DNA of 64,000 nt from a virus: IMG/VR virus record IMGVR_UViG_637000095_000001; one strand, 5' to 3'. The position numbers and the translations under genes are program-made. The notes beneath the pieces were generated by a model that searched no databases, was not told where the DNA came from, and saw nothing but the letters and a program-made list of their open reading frames with translations. The first letter of the stretch is position 1. Each line of letters opens with the position of its first letter. Below are positions 22,886 to 34,254 of the stretch, one piece after another.

Positions 22886-23160
22886 AAGAGATCCTTCAGG
22901 AAAACAGCGATGCCGTTCGCCAGGCCGGTGAGGCCCTGGTCGAAATCGGCACCGAACTGGCGGCGGGACGGATCGAGAACGCCCTCGGCCGTCTGGAAGC
23001 GGCCCAGCAGCAGTACCGGGCCTGGGCGGAGTTGGACCAGGCCATCATCGACATTCAGGAGGCTGTCCACGACAGGAAGAACACTCTGGCTGTGCAGCAG
23101 ATCCTGACGGAACTGGTGGGCACCATCCTCGGCAGCGCCTTGAGGACGGGAATGCACTGA
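22882..23160 (+). CDS. Small helical hypothetical protein
   Basis: ATGA overlap with the lipoprotein; TGATG coupling to terL. Confidence 0.7.
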   Translation: MKEILQENSDAVRQAGEALVEIGTELAAGRIENALGRLEAAQQQYRAWAELDQAIIDIQEAVHDRKNTLAVQQILTELVGTILGSALRTGMH

Positions 23161-24683
23161 TGGCGGTAACCGACAAGGAGCGCAAACTTGCGGCGACCCT
23201 GAGCGATCCCGTGTTGTGGGGGCAAGCCTACCTCTACAACCGGGATGGCTCAGGCCGCGACTATTGGCCGCATCAGGTGGAGGACCTGCGCTGCCCGGCC
23301 AAGAACATCATCCACCTCGACGGCCGGGACGTGGGCAAGTCCATCGTTCTCTCGACCGACGCGCTCCATTACGCCTTCACCACCCGAGGCGGCCAGGGCC
23401 TCGTCGCGGCTCCGCACCAGGGGCACCTCGATACCATCATCGAGGAGATCGAGTTCCAGCTCGACACCAACCCGGATCTGATGAACAGCATTGCCCTGAC
23501 CAAGTACGGCAAGCCCAAGATCCACCGCAAACCCTACTTCAGGCTGGAGTTCACCAACGGTTCGGTTCTCTATTTCCGCCCGGCCGGGGCCTATGGCGAC
23601 GCCTTCCGGTCCTTGCATGTCGGCCGCGTCTGGGTCGATGAAGGAGCCTGGCTGACCGAACGGGCCTGGAAGGCGCTGCGCCAGTGCCTCAAGGCCGGGG
23701 GGACGCTACGCATCTACTCCACGCCCAACGGCCTGCGCGACACCACCTATTACCGGCTCACCTCGTCGGAGCAGTTCCATGTGTTCCGCTGGCCGTCCTG
23801 GCTCAACCCTCTTTGGACCGAAGATCGCGAGGCCGAACTGCTGGAGTTCTACGGCGGCCGCGACAGTTCCGGCTGGCAGCACGAGGTGGCCGGTGAACAC
23901 GGCAAGCCCTCCTATGGGGCCTTCAATGTCGAACAGTTCAACCTCTGTCGGCAGGATCTGCTGGAGTATCAGAAGATCGTCATCACCGATTCCGAGCTGC
24001 GCGATTGCGACACTGAGGAAGCGGCCCACGACCGGCTGGAGATGCTGCTCAACCTCACGCCCCGCAGCGGGCAGTTCTGGGTCGGCGGCGACCTGGGCTA
24101 CACCAACGACCCCACCGAGATCGTCGTATTTCAGGAGATGGAGGTCGGCGAGCGGACGCTGCTGAAGATGATCCTGCGCGTGCATCTTGAACACGTTTCC
24201 TATCCGCACATCGCCCAGATCATCGCGCTGCTGGAGCGTTACTACACCCCGGCTGGCATCGGCGTGGACAACGGCGGCAACGGCCTGGCCGTGGTTCAGG
24301 AACTGCTCACCCTGGACAAGTACAAAGGGCTGGAGCTGGAAGGCAGGCTCAAGGGATACGACTTCGGCGGCATGACCCGGCTGGCGGTGCGGGACGGAAA
24401 GGAAATCAAGAAGCGGACCAAGGAGCTGATGACCAGCCTCATCAACGGAGCACTACAGCGCAAGCAGCTCATTTTCCCCTCGGACGACCTGGAGGTGGAA
24501 GACCAGTTCACCACCCACACCTACACCCTGCGGGACGGCAAGATCATCTATTCCAAGGGCAACGACCACATCATCGACGCGGTGCGCTGCGCCATGCTGA
24601 TCCGGGAGGAAGGCAACCTCGACCCGGTCGGCGAAGAGGTGGTCTCGCTCAAGCCGGTCCTCACCAATCCGGTTTTCATCTGA
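23160..24683 (+). CDS. terL: Terminase large subunit
   Basis: YWPHQ adenine motif, GRDVGKS Walker A, VWVDEG Walker B, YSTPNG, RNase H-like GGDLG...NDHIIDAVRCA. Confidence 0.9.
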   Translation: MAVTDKERKLAATLSDPVLWGQAYLYNRDGSGRDYWPHQVEDLRCPAKNIIHLDGRDVGKSIVLSTDALHYAFTTRGGQGLVAAPHQGHLDTIIEEIEFQLDTNPDLMNSIALTKYGKPKIHRKPYFRLEFTNGSVLYFRPAGAYGDAFRSLHVGRVWVDEGAWLTERAWKALRQCLKAGGTLRIYSTPNGLRDTTYYRLTSSEQFHVFRWPSWLNPLWTEDREAELLEFYGGRDSSGWQHEVAGEHGKPSYGAFNVEQFNLCRQDLLEYQKIVITDSELRDCDTEEAAHDRLEMLLNLTPRSGQFWVGGDLGYTNDPTEIVVFQEMEVGERTLLKMILRVHLEHVSYPHIAQIIALLERYYTPAGIGVDNGGNGLAVVQELLTLDKYKGLELEGRLKGYDFGGMTRLAVRDGKEIKKRTKELMTSLINGALQRKQLIFPSDDLEVEDQFTTHTYTLRDGKIIYSKGNDHIIDAVRCAMLIREEGNLDPVGEEVVSLKPVLTNPVFI

Positions 24684-24723: not shown

Positions 24724-24797
24724 CCGGCATCGAGCCGGGTTCGGCCCACACGGGCCGGATGTGCGGCTGTCATGGCCGAAACTACCGAGAGGATCAC

Positions 24798-26306
24798 GTG
24801 GAAAGCACCGCCCATCAGGACGAACAACCCGAAAGCCTGGACACCACCGGCTTTGTCATCGCGCCGCTGGCCGCAGCGGCAGCGCTCGACTCGGCCGCCT
24901 TCGCCAAGGTGAACGCCGCCGAAGCGATTCCTGCCACCTGGGAAGAACGCGCCCGCAAGGCCTGGGAATACTACGTCGAGGAGCCGCTGGTGAAAAACTG
25001 CGTCAACTCCTGGCGCACCTTCGCCGTGGGCGACGAGATCAAGATCACCAGCGATGACGAGACCCTCAAGGAGCAAGCCCTGGAGGCCGCCTGGCGGCTG
25101 AACGTCTCGCAGTTTATCAAGGACATGGTTCTTCAGCTCCTGGTGAAAGGCGACGCCATCGGCTTCAAGCGCTTCAGCAAGTCCGGCCAGGACATCGAGG
25201 AGCTGGTCTGCGTCAACCCGGTTTCGGTCAAGGTCAAATACGCCCAGGGCGAACTGATCGAGGCCCGGCAATTTCCCGAAGAAACTCTCGGCGGCGGGGA
25301 ATCCATCCCACTGCCCGTCGAACAGGTGGTCCACCTCAAATGGGACGCACCGGCCTTCTCGCCCCGGGGCAATTCCCTCGTGCTTCCCGCCTTTCAAGCC
25401 ATCGAACTGCTGCGCGACTACCGCCGGGCCGAACAGGCCATCGCCAAGCGCTGGGCTACGCCCTTTCGCCTGCTCAAGGTGGGCGGCGCGTTCGGCCAGA
25501 AGATGGTGATGCCGGACCAGCGGATGCTCGAACAGGTCCGCGACATGGTCAACAAGATGGACATGAAAAGCGGCCTGGTGGTCCCGTTCTACGTCAATGT
25601 CGAAACCCACGGCACCGATGGCCAGGTCCTCAACGTCGAGGACAAGGTCAAGGAGGTGAAGGAAGACATCGTGGTGGCCCTGGGTCTGTCACGCTCGCTG
25701 GTAACCGGCGACGGCCCGAATTTCGCCACCGCCTCGGTGAGCATGCAGAAGATGATGGTCATGATCCGCGAGATCAAACAGGCCGCACGCAAGCTCCTCG
25801 ACTGGGTGTTCGACGACTGGATGGAGCTGAACGGCCATGGCGACAAGAGCATCCAGTTTATCTTCAACGACCTCGACCCCAGCGACGCGGTCGATTTCAA
25901 GAAGCTCCTCATCGAACTCTACGACCGCAAGCTCATCAGCCGCTCCAGCCTTCAGCTCAAGATGGACCTGGACCCGGACATCGAGGCCGCCAACCGCGAG
26001 ACCGAACGTAAGCAGATCGACCTGATGGACGAGAAGCAGGTGAAGCCGGTGGTGGATATGGTCGTCTCCGGCATCCTCAGCGTGCCTCGCGCCCGGAAGA
26101 TGCTCGGGATTCCGGCCGAGGACGATGAACCCACGGCGGAGGCGGCATTGGTCTGGTCGGGTGACCTGGAGTCCACCGGCATTGCTGCCGTGTGCGACGA
26201 GTGCAGCCACTTCATCGCTGACACCAACCACTGCCGGGTCCACAACAGCGAGCGCACTTTCGACGCCCCGGCCTGTCGTTTCATCGACCGCCGGGAGCCC
26301 CGCTAA
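24798..26306 (+). CDS. Portal protein
   Basis: Position after terL; EPLVKNCV, QVVHLK...PRGNS, DIVVALGLSRSLVTGDGPNFATASV; GTG start behind GAGAGGA. Confidence 0.85.
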   Translation: MESTAHQDEQPESLDTTGFVIAPLAAAAALDSAAFAKVNAAEAIPATWEERARKAWEYYVEEPLVKNCVNSWRTFAVGDEIKITSDDETLKEQALEAAWRLNVSQFIKDMVLQLLVKGDAIGFKRFSKSGQDIEELVCVNPVSVKVKYAQGELIEARQFPEETLGGGESIPLPVEQVVHLKWDAPAFSPRGNSLVLPAFQAIELLRDYRRAEQAIAKRWATPFRLLKVGGAFGQKMVMPDQRMLEQVRDMVNKMDMKSGLVVPFYVNVETHGTDGQVLNVEDKVKEVKEDIVVALGLSRSLVTGDGPNFATASVSMQKMMVMIREIKQAARKLLDWVFDDWMELNGHGDKSIQFIFNDLDPSDAVDFKKLLIELYDRKLISRSSLQLKMDLDPDIEAANRETERKQIDLMDEKQVKPVVDMVVSGILSVPRARKMLGIPAEDDEPTAEAALVWSGDLESTGIAAVCDECSHFIADTNHCRVHNSERTFDAPACRFIDRREPR

Positions 26307-29300
26307 TGCCGTCGGACCTGAAGCAGCGCATCCAGACGGCCACCCTGAAAAGTCTGACGGCCCGCAACCGCTACAACGACCAGGTCACGGCCCAGCTCAC
26401 CCAGGCGCTGAAACAGGCCGAAGACGAGGTCGCCCGCGCCATCCTCCAGTACCGCTCCCTCGGCTCCCTGCCGGACAACAAGCTCGCCGCCCTCAAGGGG
26501 CTGGAAAAGCTCCAGCTCGAACTCGACGACACCATGAAGCGGCTCAAGCGGGAGCAGACCCTGCTCTTTCGCAAGACGACCAAGGACTCCTTCAAGCTCG
26601 GCATCCAACAGGGAATCGGAGAGCTCGCCGACGCGGCGCTGCCGTTCTACGCCGACCTCAAACCCGAAGGCATCGACAAGCTGGCCACCAAGGTGTTCAC
26701 CATCGTCGACACCAATGCCCTCGACTTCATGGCGCAGTACAACCTCACACTCGCCGGTGACGTTCACCGAGAACTCGCAGACGGCATCAAGCGCACCATC
26801 CTGAACGGCGTCGCCACGGGCAAGGGAGCCGACGACATCGTCCGGGACATGGGCAAGGTGATCATCGACAAGGACTCCTTTCGCCAGGCCGGAAGCCGGG
26901 TGTTCAGCAAGGCGCAGTACCGCATGGAGATGATCGCCCGCACCGAGGTCCTCCGCGCCCACAACATGGGCAGGCTCAAGTTCCACGAGCGGGTCGGCAT
27001 CCAGAAACTGGAATGGCTGGCCATGGAGGACGAGCGCATGTGCCCGGTCTGCGGCGGCCAGGACGGCAAGACCTTTCCCATCGACAAGTTCCCGCAGCAA
27101 CCCGCGCATCCGCACTGCCGCTGCACCAATATCGTGGCTTGGCCGATGACCGTCTGCGGCAGCGAGATGGCCGCCAAGGCCGCCACCCAGGCATCGCAGG
27201 GGGACGCCTGCATTCTCCCGCCCCACGTGCTGGAAGGCATGGCCGACGCCCAGGCCAAGGAGAACGCCAAGCTCAAGAGCGCCTTTGAAAACGGCGACAT
27301 CGCCGACCTCGGCTCGCTGACGGTCAAACAGCTCCAGACCCTGGCGAAACAGAACGGCGTGGCCATCGCCCGGACCAAGGCCGATTTCATCAAGCTGCTC
27401 GATCTGGCCGAACCCGGCATCGATCACGGCGACCTGGCCGGAGCGGCACTCAGCGCCAAGCTCAAGGAACACAAGATCGGCCTGCTGCGGACCAAGGAAG
27501 AACTGGTCGATCTGCTCGGGCTGAAGCAGACGGAACTCAAACAGGCCAAGCTGCTCGCCGCCCAGATGGCAAAGATCCCTCCAGCCGAGGGGCTGGAGGG
27601 CATGACCGCCCAGCAGCTCAAGGAGATGGCGAAGGAAAACGGCATCTCCCTCAATATGACCAAACAGGAGACCATCGAGCTGCTCGACAAGCTGGAACCC
27701 GGAGTGGATCACAGCGGCCTGATGGGCAAGGAACTCGCGGCGGCCAAACAGAAGCACGGCATCGGCATCCTCAAGAACAAACAGCAGCTCGTCGAGGCGC
27801 TACAGAAGAAGGCCGGTGCCGATATGGCCGAGTCGGTCAAGAAAAAGGCGGTCGACGAGGCCAAGCAGAAGTTGATCCTGAAACAGAAAACGGCACTCGA
27901 AGACGCCGCCAAGGCCGTGGTCGTTCCCGACACGCCGACCGGCTACAAGGATTTCCTCGACGCGATTGCCAAGGCGGAACAGGCGGTTTCCGGCGGCACC
28001 GATCTGCCCCAGGAACTGCTTGCGGCCCACAGCAAGGAAATCGCCCTCAAGAAACAGCTCTTCCAGGATCAGGTCGGCAAACTGAAATCGGCAGAGCTCA
28101 AGACGCTCGCCAAGGAGACCAAGGTCCAGTATTGGCAGTGGGCCAACAAAGACGAGCTGACCACGCTCTTCACCGAGACCGACCCCGCGAAAATCAAGGC
28201 GGTTCAGGTCAGCATCGACACCAAGCACGCCGCATGGGCCGAAAAACATGGCGGCAAGAAGAAAACCGCTCCTGCCAAGCCCGCCACACCGAAGAAAGAG
28301 CCACCGAAACCGGCTCCACAACCGAGCCCGGTCAAGCCGCCCGAGCCCAAGATCGGCAAGAAAGGTGCGGAGTTCGCCACAGTCGATTCAGCGTGGCAGC
28401 AGAAAGGTCTGCCGTCAAAATTCAAGAAATCCGGCAAGGCCGCTGTCGGCGGCGCACATGAAAAGGAGTTCTGGACCGACGAAAACGGCGACAAATGGCT
28501 GTTTAAGCCCATTGGCCGCAAGGACGATGAGTTCATCGCCTTCGGAGAGGAAGCCGCCTACAAGATTGGCCGCCTGATCGACCCCCATTCCATCGAGGTG
28601 CGCACCATCCAATTGAACGGCCGCACCGGCTCCATCCAGAAATGGCGCACCGATCTGCGGGACGACTTCGATTTTCGCAACATACTGCCCCAGGATCTGA
28701 CCACCATCGAACTGGAGCAGATCCAGCGCGAGCATGTGGTCGACTGGCTGATCGCCAACCACGACGGACATTCCAAGCAGTTCATCCGCGCCCGGGACGG
28801 TCGCGTCTACGGCATCGACAAAGGCCAGGCATTCAAGTTTCTGGGCCAGGACAAGCTCTCGCTCGACTATCACCCCAACGGCGTCTGCGGCGAGGAAGAG
28901 CCGTTTTACAACAAGGTCTTCCGGGCGGCCAAGGAAGGGAAGGTACGGGTCGATCCGAACGCGACCCTTCGCTACATCCAGGAAGTCGAAAAGATCGCCG
29001 ACGAGGATTATCTCGATCTGCTGCGCCCCTACGCCGAGGGCCGGTTCGCCAAGGACCCAGCCGGGCTGAGGCATTTCTACGATCTGGCCCTGGAACGAAA
29101 GCACAATCTTCGACGGGACTTCGAGGCTTATTACGCCGATGTGCTGGGGGATCGGGGGTTCCGTTTCGACAAGCTGACGGCCGCCACCGGCAAGAAAAAG
29201 CTGCTCTCCTCCGCCGAGGAAGCCCTGGTTGAGGAAGCCCGCAAACTCGGCTGGCAAGGCAAAACATTGCCCTTCGACAGCGGCGACGTGGAAGATCAGA

Positions 29301-30895
29301 ACGCGCTGATCTTCACCGAGACCTTCAAGGGGAAGAAGCGCACCGTGGTCAAGATGAAGATCCGGCCGGACACGGACCGCCGCATCGACGAAGTGCTGCG
29401 CAGGTATGTGCAGACGGCGGTCGGGGAAAAGGGACAACCGCTGGTCGAAGACAGCTTCTTTCCGACGATTCTGGACGCCGTCAAGAACGTCAATTTCCAC
29501 GTGGGCGACGGCAAGTACAACCGGACCAAGATCGACAAGGCCCTGCGCCTGCGCAAGAAACTGGAAGCCCTGCAAAAGAGCGCCGACCCCAAGGTCAAGG
29601 AGATGGCGGACCACTATCTGAAATGGGTCAAGGAGATCGAAGAGTCCGTCGACTGGGACCGGGCCACCAACGGCGTATTCGATCAGTACTTGCCCAAGCT
29701 CGACGCGCAGAAACCCAAGGAGAAACCGCCGTTCAAGGTGGAACGTGGCAAGGTGACCCATACCAAGCGCAGGATCGGGTCCGGCACCATTACCGTCGAG
29801 GCCGACGACATCGACAACCGGACGCTGTTCAATCACAACTCCCGCATGCAGGACGGGCACCAGTACACCGTCACCTTCGAGGACGGCACCCGGGTCCGCT
29901 ATCGCCCCTGGTCCGACACCAACCTCTATGCCCAGCGCGGCGAGCTGGAAATGATCCTGGACGGCGACGCCACCCCTGGACGGGTCGAGGCGATGCTGGA
30001 AAAGCTCGAACAGCTTGGGATCGATACCCGGGTGGCCACGGCGGAAAACGCCGAGCAGATGTATCTCGAAAAGCTCGCCTACATCCGCAAGACCGACAAG
30101 AGCGCCGACTACAAACGACTGCAGAAATCCCTCGACGACCGCAATGCCACCACCACCGAGCGGGTCCAGGCTCTGCGCGGCTATTGGCAAAAGGAACTGG
30201 GCGTTCAGGACATCACCCAGCTTTCCGGATACAACCCGCTGGGCGAATACCAGGCGGGTTTTCTGGACCGCGACGCCAAGGGCGGATACCGGCACCAGTT
30301 CCGGTTCGACATCACCGATGAGGAGCTGGAAAAACAGATGAAGGGCTATTCGCTGGTCCACGATCTGACCAACGGCGAGAGCATGTCCGGCTTCATCGAC
30401 TTGATCATGGAGAACAACGGAGCCATGGTCAGCACGGTCGAGAAGATGCGCATGGGCGTGGCTCCGGGCGGAATGTCCCCGGTGGCCGACATGCAGACCG
30501 GCGGCGCGAGCTATTTCTTCACCCGAATCAAGAAGCAACCGGCCAGCGACGCCTCACCGGCCCTCTACTTCAAGAAACAGATGCTGCGGCGCATGGACGC
30601 CATCAGCTATGACCATGACGCCTACGGCAAGGTGATTGACGACTACGTGCAGCGCAACCGGGGAGCCAGCATCGATGATTGGAAGCGGTTCTCGCAGCGC
30701 CATGGCAACGAGACCATCTTCAAATACTCGGTGACGCTACTGGACAACATCGAGTTCATCGTGGCCAGAAGCGACAACGAACGCCGGGAGATCGTCCAGA
30801 GTTTCACCCGGCGCGGCATCAAGAAACTGCCCGACGGGCGCAAGGTGGAGGACATCGTCCATACCCCGCAAAGCTGGAGCAAACGCAAACAATGA
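26306..30895 (+). CDS. MuF/SPP1-gp7 head morphogenesis protein with helical repeats, HipA/PI3K-like kinase and putative ART domain
   Basis: MuF core IARTEVLRAHN..G...W...DERMCPVC...HPHCRC; kinase WLFKP...DWLIANHDGHSKQF...IDKGQAF; C-terminal LVH...YFFTR...NETIFK. Confidence 0.85.
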   Translation: MPSDLKQRIQTATLKSLTARNRYNDQVTAQLTQALKQAEDEVARAILQYRSLGSLPDNKLAALKGLEKLQLELDDTMKRLKREQTLLFRKTTKDSFKLGIQQGIGELADAALPFYADLKPEGIDKLATKVFTIVDTNALDFMAQYNLTLAGDVHRELADGIKRTILNGVATGKGADDIVRDMGKVIIDKDSFRQAGSRVFSKAQYRMEMIARTEVLRAHNMGRLKFHERVGIQKLEWLAMEDERMCPVCGGQDGKTFPIDKFPQQPAHPHCRCTNIVAWPMTVCGSEMAAKAATQASQGDACILPPHVLEGMADAQAKENAKLKSAFENGDIADLGSLTVKQLQTLAKQNGVAIARTKADFIKLLDLAEPGIDHGDLAGAALSAKLKEHKIGLLRTKEELVDLLGLKQTELKQAKLLAAQMAKIPPAEGLEGMTAQQLKEMAKENGISLNMTKQETIELLDKLEPGVDHSGLMGKELAAAKQKHGIGILKNKQQLVEALQKKAGADMAESVKKKAVDEAKQKLILKQKTALEDAAKAVVVPDTPTGYKDFLDAIAKAEQAVSGGTDLPQELLAAHSKEIALKKQLFQDQVGKLKSAELKTLAKETKVQYWQWANKDELTTLFTETDPAKIKAVQVSIDTKHAAWAEKHGGKKKTAPAKPATPKKEPPKPAPQPSPVKPPEPKIGKKGAEFATVDSAWQQKGLPSKFKKSGKAAVGGAHEKEFWTDENGDKWLFKPIGRKDDEFIAFGEEAAYKIGRLIDPHSIEVRTIQLNGRTGSIQKWRTDLRDDFDFRNILPQDLTTIELEQIQREHVVDWLIANHDGHSKQFIRARDGRVYGIDKGQAFKFLGQDKLSLDYHPNGVCGEEEPFYNKVFRAAKEGKVRVDPNATLRYIQEVEKIADEDYLDLLRPYAEGRFAKDPAGLRHFYDLALERKHNLRRDFEAYYADVLGDRGFRFDKLTAATGKKKLLSSAEEALVEEARKLGWQGKTLPFDSGDVEDQNALIFTETFKGKKRTVVKMKIRPDTDRRIDEVLRRYVQTAVGEKGQPLVEDSFFPTILDAVKNVNFHVGDGKYNRTKIDKALRLRKKLEALQKSADPKVKEMADHYLKWVKEIEESVDWDRATNGVFDQYLPKLDAQKPKEKPPFKVERGKVTHTKRRIGSGTITVEADDIDNRTLFNHNSRMQDGHQYTVTFEDGTRVRYRPWSDTNLYAQRGELEMILDGDATPGRVEAMLEKLEQLGIDTRVATAENAEQMYLEKLAYIRKTDKSADYKRLQKSLDDRNATTTERVQALRGYWQKELGVQDITQLSGYNPLGEYQAGFLDRDAKGGYRHQFRFDITDEELEKQMKGYSLVHDLTNGESMSGFIDLIMENNGAMVSTVEKMRMGVAPGGMSPVADMQTGGASYFFTRIKKQPASDASPALYFKKQMLRRMDAISYDHDAYGKVIDDYVQRNRGASIDDWKRFSQRHGNETIFKYSVTLLDNIEFIVARSDNERREIVQSFTRRGIKKLPDGRKVEDIVHTPQSWSKRKQ

Positions 30896-31404
30896 CCATG
30901 AAGGACTTTATCGAGCAGGAAAAACGGCGGCTGCAAGAATCGCTGCACTGGTTCAACAGCCGGGGCAGCCGCATGACGGTCAGAGAATCCGGGGATCTCT
31001 TTCTGGATACCCTGGTGGACAGCTTCACCGTCACCCGGATCGCACCCCATTTCGACGCTGCTGGCAACCATCTGCGCACCGATTTCTGGCTGTTGTGGAA
31101 GGCGCTCGGTTACGACGAGGGCTTTCAGCACGCCCACACCATCAAAGTGGTCGATGTCCGGGTCGAAGACACCCTGATGGCCGAACATGACGGCAAGGAG
31201 GCCGAAGGCTGGCTGATTGTCGAGCTGACCGACGATCTGGGCCGGATTCACCATGTCGAAATGATGGAGCCGGTCTCGGAGCCCGAGCTCGCGGCGGACT
31301 GGCAACGCTGGATCGCCTACCGACAAAAAAACGCCGAAAGATTCCACCGGATCGACGCCCAGCTTCTGGAAGAGCATCTCCAGATCGCGGAGGACTGGTC
31401 ATGA
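30892..31404 (+). CDS. Hypothetical protein (candidate immunity/partner of MuF)
   Basis: ATGA overlap with the MuF stop; 170 aa. Confidence 0.7.
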   Translation: MTMKDFIEQEKRRLQESLHWFNSRGSRMTVRESGDLFLDTLVDSFTVTRIAPHFDAAGNHLRTDFWLLWKALGYDEGFQHAHTIKVVDVRVEDTLMAEHDGKEAEGWLIVELTDDLGRIHHVEMMEPVSEPELAADWQRWIAYRQKNAERFHRIDAQLLEEHLQIAEDWS

Positions 31405-31754
31405 AACTGCGCTATATGATCGACTCGATAATGGCCGACCGGCAAGCCACCGTCCCGGAATACGTGCCCGTGGGCGTCTGGGTTCAGGGGCCGGGTCCCG
31501 GTCTGGATGTGGAGATGTACTACCTCGACCGGGGGCCGAACGGGCTTGCCGACCGCAAGGACGAGGCCGCCTGGGTGGTCAACCGTCTGGTCGAGGCCGA
31601 GGCCACCTCGCTTCCGGCGAATTTTCTCGAATATCACCGGCTGTCCCGCTCCCCCTATGACGGGGTCTTTTCCGAGATCACCGAGAGCGACGAATACCCC
31701 TCCCTCGACGCCTGCGGCAAGGCCGTTCTGGCCCGGCTGAACCCCACCCGCTGA
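31401..31754 (+). CDS. Hypothetical protein (117 aa)
   Basis: ATGA overlap; GGAGG upstream. Confidence 0.7.
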   Translation: MKLRYMIDSIMADRQATVPEYVPVGVWVQGPGPGLDVEMYYLDRGPNGLADRKDEAAWVVNRLVEAEATSLPANFLEYHRLSRSPYDGVFSEITESDEYPSLDACGKAVLARLNPTR

Positions 31755-31854: not shown

Positions 31855-34254
31855 TTGATGGAACTGTTCGCCACAGACCTGGAAAGGCTGGCGTTTCTAC
31901 TGGAGGCCGATGCGGCGCTGACTCTCGATCCCGATGCGCTCGGGACCGAGGCCGCCGAACAGTCCGCTCCTGAAGAGCTCCCTCCCGAGAAGCGCCCCAA
32001 GTACATCACCAACTACATCGGCAGTAAGCAGAAGCTCGTCGACTGGATCTGGAAGCATACCCCGGAAGGCGTTGGCACCGTGCTCGACGCCTTTTCGGGG
32101 TCTGCGGTCGTGGCCTACATGTACAAGACCAAGGGCCTCCAGGTCATCGCCAACGACCGGCTCCGCTACTGCCACCACGCCGCCAAGGCGATCATCGAGA
32201 ACAACTCGGTTCGCCTGAGCGAGGACGAGATCGAGGCGCTCCTGGCCGACAACGCCAAGGCGGGCAGCTTCGTTCAGGACAACTTCAAGGGCATTTTCTT
32301 CGCCAAGGGCGTCCATGCGCTGATCGACACCATCCGCGCCAACTGCGACAAGCTCTCCGGCTTCAAGAAAGACATCGCCCTGTTCGGCCTCGGCAAGACC
32401 TGCATGAGCGGCAAGGGCGGCTTCGGCCACTTCTCGTCGTCCACCGACTATGGCCGCCGCCAGGACACCCCAGACGAATTCAAGGATCGTCTGCGCAAGA
32501 ACCTGCAGCGCATCAACGCCCTGGTCTTCGACAACGACAAGGAGAACAAGGCCCACCGGCAGGACATCAACGACCTGCTGCCGAAAGCCAAGGCGGATCT
32601 GGCCTACTTCGATCCGCCCTACGCCACCGAGTTTTCGACTACCAACTACGAGCGGGCCTACCACTTCGTGGAAGGGCTCATGACCTATTGGGAAGGGCTC
32701 GAAATCAAGGCCGACACCAAGGTCAAGTATTACGAGACCGACCACAAGACCGTCACCAAGGCCAACGCCAGCGAGTTCTTCCAGACCTTTCTCGGCAATG
32801 CCAAGCACATTCCGCACTGGCTGATTTCCTACCGCGATCACGCCTATCCCAACGAGCAGGAGATGAAGCGGATCATCGGCTCCTTCGGCAAACAGAGCCG
32901 GATGAAGTCCAAGGATCACCACTACGCCATCACCTCCAAGCACGGCGAGGCTTCCAACGCCAAAGAACGTCTGTTCGTCTGCGCTCCCGGGGCCAAGGCC
33001 AGCGCCGAACGGGAGGAGAAACCCGTTCCGATGGCCGCCGCCGCGAACTTCCACACCAGCATCCCCGTGGACATCCGGCTGGGCGATGGTGAACGCCTCG
33101 CGACCGAGGCCATGGATGTCGGTTCGGCGGGCGACCCCCAGTTCAGCTTCGTGCTCTGCCGAACCGGGACCAACAAGAACGGCGACCACTTCACCGCCGA
33201 GGAGTTGTCCGGTCGGCACATGACGGCCGTGAACAAGAAGGTCGATCTGCAGCATTCGCAGGAGTTCAACGACATCGTGGGTGGCATCGTCGCCGCCGAC
33301 TACCTGGAGGACGACAACGGCGGCCGCGTGGAATGCGTCGGCGAGCTGTATGTCCACGACACCCCGGCCGCCCGGCTGGCCTACAAGCTGATGAAGCGCG
33401 GGATCATCTCCCAGGTCTCCATGGAGTGCGACTACCAGGAAGGCGAATGCTCGGTCTGCCACAAGCGCTTCCAGAACAAGGCCGACTACTGCACCCACCT
33501 GCGCAAATTCAAGGGCCGTGATGTGGGCGGCCAACCCGTTTTCGAGATTCTGCACGGCGTCACTTTCACCGGACTGGGACTGCTCGACCGCAAAGGCGCG
33601 GACGAGAACGCCAGGATTCTGCAGGTGGCGTCCCTTCAGAGCCAGCCCGACCAATCCCAACCCGAAGGAGATTCCACGATGGAAGACAAAACCAAACCTA
33701 CAGATGAACCGGCCGTCGAAGCGGCCAAGAAGAAACCGGCCCAGCAGGAAGGCGATCCTGCCCGCGTTACCGACCTGGAAAAGGAAAACCGGCAGCTCAA
33801 GGCCCAGGTGGCCGAGCTGCAGAAACGAGTCCAGGAACTGGAAGCCGAACAAAAGGCGGCCGCCTGCCGCTCCCGGGCCAAGAAGCTGCTCACCCGTCTG
33901 GAGAAGCAGGGGCTCTCCTTCGCTTCCGAGGAGGACCGGGAAGCCGAGCTGAAACGCCTGGCCGAACTGTCCGACGAAGCCTTCGCCGCCACCGAGGCCG
34001 CTTACGAACGCCTGCCCAAATCGGCCAAGGCGGACAAGGACAAGGAAGAGAAACCCGCCGACAGCGACCAGGGCGGCAAGCCCGCCGCCAAGGCATCGAC
34101 GGAAACCCCGCTACGCAGCGACGCCGGTGTCCGGCCCCACGATGTGGACGACCGCAAGGTGTCGCTCGAGGACCGTCTGCGCGACGGGTTCATGGCCGCT
34201 TACCGCAACCGTGTCGGCGAGGACTTTCCCGAACACTCGCAAATCAACGCATAA
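31855..34254 (+). CDS. DNA adenine methyltransferase (D12/Dam class) fused to prohead protease and scaffold
   Basis: NYIGSKQKL, VLDAFSGSAVV, YFDPPY (N-half); KKVDLQH...IVGGI...QVSMEC...CSVC...YCTH...FTGLGLL...AD.NARI (protease); coiled-coil acidic tail; single uninterrupted frame. Confidence 0.85.
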   Translation: MMELFATDLERLAFLLEADAALTLDPDALGTEAAEQSAPEELPPEKRPKYITNYIGSKQKLVDWIWKHTPEGVGTVLDAFSGSAVVAYMYKTKGLQVIANDRLRYCHHAAKAIIENNSVRLSEDEIEALLADNAKAGSFVQDNFKGIFFAKGVHALIDTIRANCDKLSGFKKDIALFGLGKTCMSGKGGFGHFSSSTDYGRRQDTPDEFKDRLRKNLQRINALVFDNDKENKAHRQDINDLLPKAKADLAYFDPPYATEFSTTNYERAYHFVEGLMTYWEGLEIKADTKVKYYETDHKTVTKANASEFFQTFLGNAKHIPHWLISYRDHAYPNEQEMKRIIGSFGKQSRMKSKDHHYAITSKHGEASNAKERLFVCAPGAKASAEREEKPVPMAAAANFHTSIPVDIRLGDGERLATEAMDVGSAGDPQFSFVLCRTGTNKNGDHFTAEELSGRHMTAVNKKVDLQHSQEFNDIVGGIVAADYLEDDNGGRVECVGELYVHDTPAARLAYKLMKRGIISQVSMECDYQEGECSVCHKRFQNKADYCTHLRKFKGRDVGGQPVFEILHGVTFTGLGLLDRKGADENARILQVASLQSQPDQSQPEGDSTMEDKTKPTDEPAVEAAKKKPAQQEGDPARVTDLEKENRQLKAQVAELQKRVQELEAEQKAAACRSRAKKLLTRLEKQGLSFASEEDREAELKRLAELSDEAFAATEAAYERLPKSAKADKDKEEKPADSDQGGKPAAKASTETPLRSDAGVRPHDVDDRKVSLEDRLRDGFMAAYRNRVGEDFPEHSQINA

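Follow-up and report, generated by a model that had tools for sequence, protein, structure and literature searches.

Phages inject enzymes, among them T4 Alt, P1 Dar and MuF effectors, and few of these have been characterised. In this study, we asked whether a large MuF-type head protein could be another such enzyme carrier, and what its enzymes might do for the phage. The window that we analysed is the whole 64,000-nucleotide stretch of the IMG/VR virus record IMGVR_UViG_637000095_000001, and the gene lies at positions 26306-30895 on the plus strand. An earlier note, made from the letters of this DNA, had described its product as a 1529-amino acid (aa) polyvalent MuF protein with DNA-binding repeats, a HipA/PI3K-like kinase and a probable ADP-ribosyltransferase (ART), which would be delivered from the capsid. 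The open reading frame (ORF) list and the translation gave exactly this gene, a single ORF of 1529 codons on the plus strand encoding a 1529-aa protein (P0001), and profile searches with Pfam and TIGR, self-alignment and family alignment found all the domain blocks where the earlier note had put them. The explanation that fits best as a whole, and that we regard as probable, is that a temperate phage of about 90 kb makes a polyvalent protein that is virion cargo and is injected with the DNA, with two active enzymes and with the products of two small downstream genes, d1 and d2, as partners.

26306-30895, plus strand: whole gene, 1529-aa MuF polyvalent head protein (ORF and translation; phrog_6577 spans residues 38-1370)

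A kinase-like domain of the PI4KII/CtkA/HipA type

28403-29185, plus strand: atypical protein-kinase-like domain of the PI4KII/CtkA/HipA type, residues ~700-960 (model, Foldseek, VIA, conservation)

We modelled residues 685-965 from an alignment of 48 diverse sequences, and the model had a predicted local distance difference test (pLDDT) score of 95.3. Foldseek with this model returned protein kinases only, the best TM-scores (0.51-0.54) being those of Helicobacter pylori CtkA and human PI4KIIalpha. VIA-align ranked PI4KIIalpha first (Z 15.8, 233 of 281 residues aligned), followed by CtkA (15.3), Fam20C (12.9), MavQ (12.6) and HipA (10.7), and the model has a helical C-lobe. The predicted fold is thus the one expected for the HipA/PI3K-like kinase of the earlier note. 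K734, Q778, D813, D820, D838, D849, R931 and K932 are invariant across the 48 sequences, and they include the landmarks of such a kinase: K734 (in WLFKP, strand beta-3) corresponds to the ATP-binding lysine, D820 (in NHD) to the catalytic aspartate and D838 (in IDKG, DFG-like) to the metal-binding aspartate. H819 and H822 are almost invariant, the latter being present in 41 sequences.

The catalytic loop of this domain had been called atypical because it reads DGHxxQ. Position 825 is glutamine in 21 of the 48 relatives, asparagine in 20 and alanine in 6, so that 41 have one or the other of the first two, and this distribution marks it as the position of the usual metal-binding asparagine. Hence the loop is not aberrant. 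Judged by the alignment, it appears to be an (N/Q)HDxHxx(N/Q) form of the D-x-H-x-x-N loop of HipA and PI3K, with Q825 as a lineage variant of the metal-binding asparagine. We rejected Q825 as a sign of a dead kinase, since asparagine and glutamine alternate there.

The features that define a HipA/PI3-PI4-type kinase, namely the fold, the beta-3 lysine, the D-x-H-x-x-N loop and the metal-binding aspartate, are all present. The HipA_C profile (PF07804) matched with E 0.057 and 13.5 bits against a cut-off of 30.5, and one relative reached 23.7 bits. HipA_C and SCO1664, both sub-threshold, were the only Pfam/NCBIfam matches within the enzyme domains, and profile searches of the PDB with the alignments of the kinase, the ART and the module between them gave chance rows or nothing. 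The model suggests a domain that would work like a HipA/PI3-PI4-type kinase, yet it is not a member of HipA_C by the Pfam test.

A C-terminal domain resembling DarT

30332-30883, plus strand: DarT-like ADP-ribosyltransferase, residues 1343-1526, with H1352, Y1403 and E1469 (Foldseek, VIA, exhaustive fold search, conservation)

From an alignment of residues 966-1529 with 43 relatives we obtained a model (pLDDT 92.1) that covers the middle module and the ART. Against the PDB, Foldseek placed Thermus DarT first (probability 0.99, TM-score by target 0.48-0.49), and against the Swiss-Prot models it matched DarT of enteropathogenic Escherichia coli with a probability of 1.00 over model residues 379-559. 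When VIA-align was run on Foldseek's list, six DarT entries had Z scores of 9.1-10.4, and the next unrelated row had 6.5. An exhaustive scan of 48,161 representative chains had DarT1 on top (8baq, Z 10.9, 164 residues aligned), and its top four chains were all DarT proteins (DarT1, Thermosipho DarTG, Thermus DarT2 and Mycobacterium tuberculosis DarT; Z 9.3-10.9). DarT is the closest ART fold for the domain, with Z scores of 9.1-10.9 over 148-164 aligned residues, and the ART that the earlier note had called probable thus found DarT1 or DarT2 at the top of three independent searches.

The putative H-Y-E residues that had been picked out in LVH, YFFTR and NETIFK proved to be the conserved ones: H1352 is kept in 45 of 47 family sequences, Y1403 in 43 and E1469 in all of them. 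In the model, H1352 ends beta-1, Y1403 opens beta-3 and E1469 opens the strand that follows an ARTT-like loop, and the place of its predicted strand makes Y1403 the likely equivalent of the DarT tyrosine. R1382, which is present in 44 of the 47 and lies after beta-2, is by our own mapping a possible counterpart of R51/R52 in DarT. We also compared the ART family with five genuine DarT proteins from related genomes using hhalign. The global alignment was meaningless; the usable part is the local alignment around the glutamate, in which E1469 falls, with weak support, on the catalytic glutamate of DarT (E 5.6e-4 for the pair). Looser settings placed H1352, the histidine of LVH, on the beta-1 histidine of DarT (YHFTH), as a low-confidence extension.

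We base the ART call on the predicted fold and the motif positions, because Pfam and PDB-profile searches find no family. Fold and motif geometry indicate a DarT-like ART, which is not a member of the DarT family by sequence. Folding the protein domain by domain, as the earlier note had proposed, gave the HipA/CtkA/PI4K and DarT matches that it had predicted.

Kinase, middle module and ART form one unit

29228-30325, plus strand: conserved module, residues ~975-1340, an alpha/beta domain into which a three-helix bundle is inserted, followed by a helical linker (confident model)

The kinase and the ART are separated by a middle module that nearly always accompanies the ART domain. Its similarities in VIA and the exhaustive search were to TATA-binding protein, phosphoglucomutase domain 4 and triphosphate-tunnel folds, with Z scores of only 5-6, which is within the noise range, and a search of the Atlas with the module found no match.

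We next consider how widely the enzyme block occurs. The family includes 246 homologues of about 1520 aa that share words with the protein, and an exhaustive HMMER search found 2163 representative clusters at E <= 0.001 and 761 at E <= 1e-30, the clusters being protein clusters at 50% identity from many phyla; hence the gene family is far beyond chance. In most clusters the kinase, module and ART together form the C-terminal unit of proteins that are 1000-5800 residues long, and the giant carriers that we tested (four of four) have MuF domains. Some clusters contain the kinase only, or the module and ART only, and stand-alone kinase and module genes were seen on short contigs. The order kinase-module-ART is kept at 40-72% identity across phyla. 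In an alignment of 108 full-length homologues, the kinase and the C-terminal block are conserved from end to end, as is the rest of the protein except for the Pro/Lys linker. The block from kinase to ART is one evolutionary unit.

A MuF domain and HeH repeats precede the enzyme block

26306-27175, plus strand: MuF / SPP1 gp7 head-morphogenesis domain, residues 1-290, with CPVCG...HPHCRC at 246-273 (PF04233, TIGR01641)
27305-27805, plus strand: four HeH (Rho_N/SAP-like) repeats R1-R4, residues 334-500 (self-alignment)
28079-28183, plus strand: weak fifth HeH-like repeat, residues 592-626 (z 2-3 against R1-R3; stretch conserved in the family)
28253-28375, plus strand: Pro/Lys-rich linker, residues 650-690 (sequence; family alignment)

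The N-terminal part identifies the protein as a head protein. Pfam Phage_Mu_F (PF04233) matched residues 160-275 with E 1.9e-14 (54.8 bits, cut-off 29.6), and TIGR01641 matched with E 3.2e-16 (59.7 bits, cut-off 39.65). With both profiles above their curated cut-offs and the gene directly after those of the large terminase and the portal, the protein belongs to the MuF family, and the MuF core named in the earlier note is borne out.

The same note had counted five repeats after this core. Four of them, R1-R4, are clear, while the fifth is weak. R1-R4 consist of a two-repeat helix-loop-helix unit that is duplicated in tandem (z = 27 for unit against unit, relative to shuffles), and in the self-alignment repeat pairs scored z 5-14 against shuffles, including 13.8 for R1/R3 and 10 for R2/R4. 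Rho_N and SAP were sub-threshold in the 1529-aa protein (E 0.05-0.065), and the database records Pfam matches to Rho_N/SAP for several homologues. The Pro/Lys linker is present in the sequence as had been described, and it has the lowest conservation and the most gaps in the alignment of the 108 full-length homologues.

Sister phages carry a restriction-modification cassette in place of the enzyme block

27801-31748, no strand assigned: accessory segment from MuF codon 500 to the end of d2 (blastn breakpoints against sister phages)
30892-31404, plus strand: d1, 170-aa translationally coupled partner gene of no known family (ATGA overlap with the MuF stop)
31401-31754, plus strand: d2, 117-aa coupled partner gene of no known family (synteny, identity to a relative)

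On both flanks of 27801-31748, the window has 95-98% DNA identity to the nearest genome, which contains two prophage copies, and to the nearest viral record, a contig of 90,363 bp with direct terminal repeats. In these sister phages the segment itself is swapped for about 2.9 kb of other DNA. Their MuF protein is short (520 aa), has 98% identity across residues 1-499 and ends just past the fourth HeH repeat. The new DNA carries, on the opposite strand, genes for an Eco57I/N6_Mtase methylase of 579 aa, a XhoI endonuclease of 246 aa (E 2e-106) and a helix-turn-helix protein of 119 aa. This restriction-modification (R-M) cassette is located at L005 13693-16556 in virus record G002 and is also found in G001. 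Two other species genomes of the same genus carry the long form at 98-99%. Because distant relatives keep the long form together with d1 and d2, the long form is ancestral and the R-M form derived.

Since phages that are 96-98% identical have replaced residues 500-1529 together with d1 and d2, the enzyme block and the two genes are one dispensable accessory module. Their loss together with the block suggests that d1 and d2 belong to it functionally. The contig with terminal repeats and the two prophage copies argue that the enzyme block is probably not needed to build particles. Loss in exchange for the R-M cassette is the only variation of the MuF tip that we saw, and the tip is otherwise conserved across the family.

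This exchange bears on two other explanations of the protein. First, it might be a MuF polymorphic toxin directed against competing bacteria, which would be released when a lysogen lyses or be borne on particles and kill neighbours that lack immunity, with d1 and d2 as the immunity genes of the lysogen. The MuF N-terminus, the toxin-like C-terminus and the small coupled genes are as in the family described by Jamet et al. 2017 (PMC5576092) and in Bxa with Bsi and BAH (PMC11699363), and the C-terminal part is indeed exchangeable between near-identical phages. However, the incoming DNA was an R-M cassette and not another toxin, and polymorphic toxins swap their tips, whereas the block here is not polymorphic and keeps its order of domains, at the identities given above, from phylum to phylum. 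DNA-binding HeH repeats and a fixed two-enzyme design also fit an injected effector better than a polymorphic toxin, and we consider such a toxin unlikely.

Second, the protein could serve a structural role, in an internal core or as a spacer, with enzyme-like domains that persist only as inactive relics. The sequence matches of both the kinase and the ART below family thresholds, and the glutamine in place of the canonical asparagine at position 825, would agree with decay. Relics would be expected to drift, but every catalytic position is invariant or almost so over 47-48 divergent sequences, and the residue at 825 alternates between glutamine and asparagine. Sister phages moreover manage without the whole block, which is therefore not structurally required. 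Decayed enzymes are in our view a very improbable explanation.

The partner genes d1 and d2

The stop codon of the MuF gene (TGA) overlaps the ATG of d1 (ATGA). Both d1 and d2 are found in the same positions in relatives whose MuF proteins are 47-67% identical. The relative with a 47% identical MuF protein has at the position of d2 a gene that is 41% identical to it; the sequence of d1 is weakly conserved in distant relatives. Neither gene received a Pfam, PHROG or Atlas assignment. With respect to DarG, the adjacent d1 and d2 had no Pfam/PHROG match that would make either of them a macrodomain/NADAR antitoxin, and the genuine DarT-DarG pair of a relative looks different. McProf gp55 was considered as a homologue of d2 and rejected at 17% identity.

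Gene neighbourhood and a shared late region

Upstream of the MuF gene are the genes for the large terminase (23160-24683) and the portal (24759-26306), the stop codon of the latter overlapping the MuF ATG (TAATG), and the order terminase-portal-MuF is also found in relatives. Downstream of d1 and d2, in the protease/scaffold slot, lies a gene for a 799-aa protein (31855-34254, plus strand) that combines a D12-class Dam methyltransferase (E 1.7e-25) with a weak match to prohead protease S78 and a coiled coil. This Dam-protease-scaffold fusion is kept in relatives, and it looks like a second DNA-modifying enzyme directed to the capsid interior.

A third alternative is that the enzymes act in cis, the ART marking phage DNA or the kinase modifying head or internal proteins during packaging or ejection, so that the genome is shielded from restriction as by P1 DarB. 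In addition to the fusion of Dam to a prohead protease-scaffold in the next large gene, it would suit this idea that the closest fold is a DNA-base ADP-ribosyltransferase, that DNA-binding HeH repeats are present and that the R-M system found at the corresponding site in the sister phages brings a methylase of its own. Against it, NAD and ATP are not expected in capsids, the known DNA modification of the DarT type blocks replication (PMC11543638), and Pfam/PHROG annotation of the neighbours revealed no recognisable reversing hydrolase nearby. Action in cis thus seems decidedly unlikely to us.

The G+C content rises from 0.50-0.54 to 0.61-0.65 at about 20 kb of the window, and the MuF gene lies within the high-GC late region. 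A megablast search of GenBank phages gave no match. The late region (window 20000-64000) is 92-98% identical in DNA to species-representative genomes that are named as distant taxa. Among them are the PL12 chromosome of Desulfosarcina alkanivorans, Desulfocarbo indianensis, Desulfofustis glycolicus DSM 9705, Desulfobulbus rhabdoformis DSM 8777 and Ectothiorhodospira shaposhnikovii DSM 243, and further carriers are metagenome-assembled genomes (MAGs) of Verrucomicrobiota, Geobacteraceae, Rhodospirillaceae and Hydrogenedentales. Identity is only 67-75% in the low-GC early region (window 1-20 kb) for five of those genomes. Across orders and phyla, a near-identical virion module is combined with early modules that diverge. 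We considered errors in MAG binning as the cause of the late-region pattern; they cannot account for the isolates.

Several genomes have more than one copy. On the chromosome of Desulfosarcina alkanivorans, a second, diverged copy of the phage type, with 66-76% DNA identity (C1 271-330 kb), is separated by about 30 kb from the copy that is 96% identical. Genome G015 has two long-form copies (C1 490282-492816 and 579759-582293). Their spacing of 89.5 kb is close to the length of one phage genome and suggests that two prophages lie in tandem. The two short-form copies of genome G001 (C1 1933886 and 2888825) are 955 kb apart.

A proposed role at the start of infection

We propose that the protein acts as an injected two-enzyme effector. 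The analysis shows the domain folds, the conserved catalytic residues, the gene context, the linkage of d1 and d2 to the block and its dispensability; that the protein is packaged, ejected and catalytically active, what it modifies and what d1 and d2 do, we infer. The N-terminal MuF domain would anchor the protein in the procapsid beside the portal, and the four or five HeH repeats would tie it to the packaged DNA. The flexible Pro/Lys linker would lead to the fixed block, in which an active kinase of the PI4KII/CtkA/HipA type is followed by an alpha/beta module and an NAD-dependent ART resembling DarT. Most likely, the protein would be ejected into the cell along with the DNA. Before phage gene expression begins, host or defence components close to the incoming DNA would then be phosphorylated by the kinase and ADP-ribosylated by the ART. 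The products of d1 and d2 would be dedicated partners, most likely inhibitors or immunity proteins that keep the block harmless in the producing cell. There are precedents for several of these steps: T4 Alt and MuF-fused effectors are injected (PMC5512222, PMC9503650), the DNA-binding domain of the T7 kinase directs it to disarm DNA-associated defences (PMC13645617), and the MuF-ART Bxa is neutralised by two immunity proteins (PMC11699363).

Some observations weigh against this proposal. Sequence searches put the C-terminal domain in no ART family: the Pfam DarT profile (PF14487) did not match the 1529-aa protein and matched 2 of the 47 relatives with E 0.025, below the cut-off, the PDB profile search with the ART alignment was empty, and the hhalign probability against DarT was only 30%. 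The presence of the protein in virions and its ejection are putative. Neither d1 nor d2 has a macrodomain, NADAR or other known antidote signature according to Pfam, PHROG and Atlas. Finally, covalent attachment of the ART to MuF is not obligatory, because the ART module is a separate gene in one relative and can exist unfused. In this metagenomic relative, present on six contigs (L015 1109-5635), a 958-aa MuF-HeH-kinase protein is split from the module-ART, for which a separate gene of 544 aa begins 16 nucleotides downstream, followed by d1- and d2-like genes.

A further-reaching version of the proposal, to which we give a low probability, is that the DarT-like domain is a virion-delivered ART for nucleic acids that works beside a DNA-tethered, promiscuous kinase. 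Such a 'first-minute' anti-defence kit, together with the capsid-targeted Dam, might let the 92-98% identical virion module establish itself in hosts from different orders and phyla (Desulfobacterota, Gammaproteobacteria and Verrucomicrobiota).

If the enzymes are active, the block would be a very common means for temperate phages to alter proteins of the host or of its defences, or DNA, ahead of the onset of transcription. The sister phages with the R-M cassette offer a ready-made isogenic comparison.

Comparison with known systems

The label 'polyvalent' used in the earlier note fits the definition of Iyer et al. 2017 (PMC5512222), as at least two enzymatic domains are combined with MuF in the head gene cluster. 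The protein resembles the polyvalent proteins of Iyer, Burroughs, Anand, de Souza and Aravind (PMC5512222) and MuF-fused ARTs (PMC9503650) in being a large head-associated multi-effector protein encoded beside the packaging genes. Iyer et al. described, in prophages of the Verrucomicrobia type, ARTs and a special kinase clade whose final N-lobe strand contains a conserved glutamine. The kinase studied here, with its conserved Q778, may belong to that clade; identity is unproven because the clade is said to be without a C-terminal subdomain, unlike our model with its C-lobe.

Among MuF-ARTs, the closest parallels are Bxa, from a Bacteroides stercoris prophage, and the family of Jamet et al., with a MuF N-terminus, a C-terminal ART, two small downstream genes and a temperate phage as the carrier. 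Unlike in Bxa, the ART here is DarT-like instead of exotoxin-like, and it is preceded by a kinase and a module of 370 residues. Unlike in MuF polymorphic toxins, the tip is conserved, and neither d1 nor d2 resembles a known family of immunity proteins or ADP-ribosylhydrolases.

DarT1 and DarT2 of DarTG (PDB 8BAQ, 7OMV, 7OMU and 7YK3; PMC11543638) are the best structural match over the whole domain. They share with it the order of beta-1 histidine, beta-3 aromatic residue and catalytic glutamate, and possibly the conserved arginine after beta-2. The domain differs in having no significant sequence similarity to this family and no DarG macrodomain/NADAR partner; it is attached to a virion protein and is the phage's own, not part of a host defence system. 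The kinase domain likewise shares with PI4KIIalpha, H. pylori CtkA and HipA the fold (Z 15.8, 15.3 and 10.7), the beta-3 lysine, the (N/Q)HDxHxx(N/Q) loop and IDKG, but it is only 8-16% identical to them, scores 13.5 bits against the 30.5 required for HipA_C and lies inside a head protein.

A nearer relative of the kinase is found in gp54 of mycobacteriophage McProf and its relatives, annotated in GenBank as 'minor capsid and ADP-ribosyltransferase domain fusion protein'. This product name mentions the minor capsid and ADP-ribosyltransferase parts only; residues 450-731 of McProf gp54 are a copy of the kinase domain (32% identical, E 1e-37). McProf gp54 is, like P0001, a MuF-type (VG15) head protein that ends in an ART. 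It differs in having a classical ADPrib_exo_Tox ART (PF03496) and a different middle module, and it is an independent pairing of kinase and ART on a MuF-type protein. T7 protein kinase gp0.7 (PMC13645617) and T4 Alt are comparable in that both act on many host proteins, which they modify as infection begins. A DNA-binding domain guides the T7 kinase to DNA-associated defences; unlike P0001, this enzyme belongs to another kinase family and is expressed early instead of being packaged. Alt is packaged and injected, as we propose for P0001, but its ART is of the R-S-E type.

Overall, the theme of MuF effectors and polyvalent proteins is already known. In the literature that we searched, there was no study of this pair of a kinase and a DarT-like ART and no description of the fixed block of a PI4KII/CtkA-like kinase, the module, a DarT-like ART and two partner genes. 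What our analysis adds is the replacement of the block by an R-M cassette, the alternation of asparagine and glutamine at position 825 and the distribution across distant taxa. If the block is active, the phage would be using the same enzyme fold that bacteria deploy against phages in DarTG.

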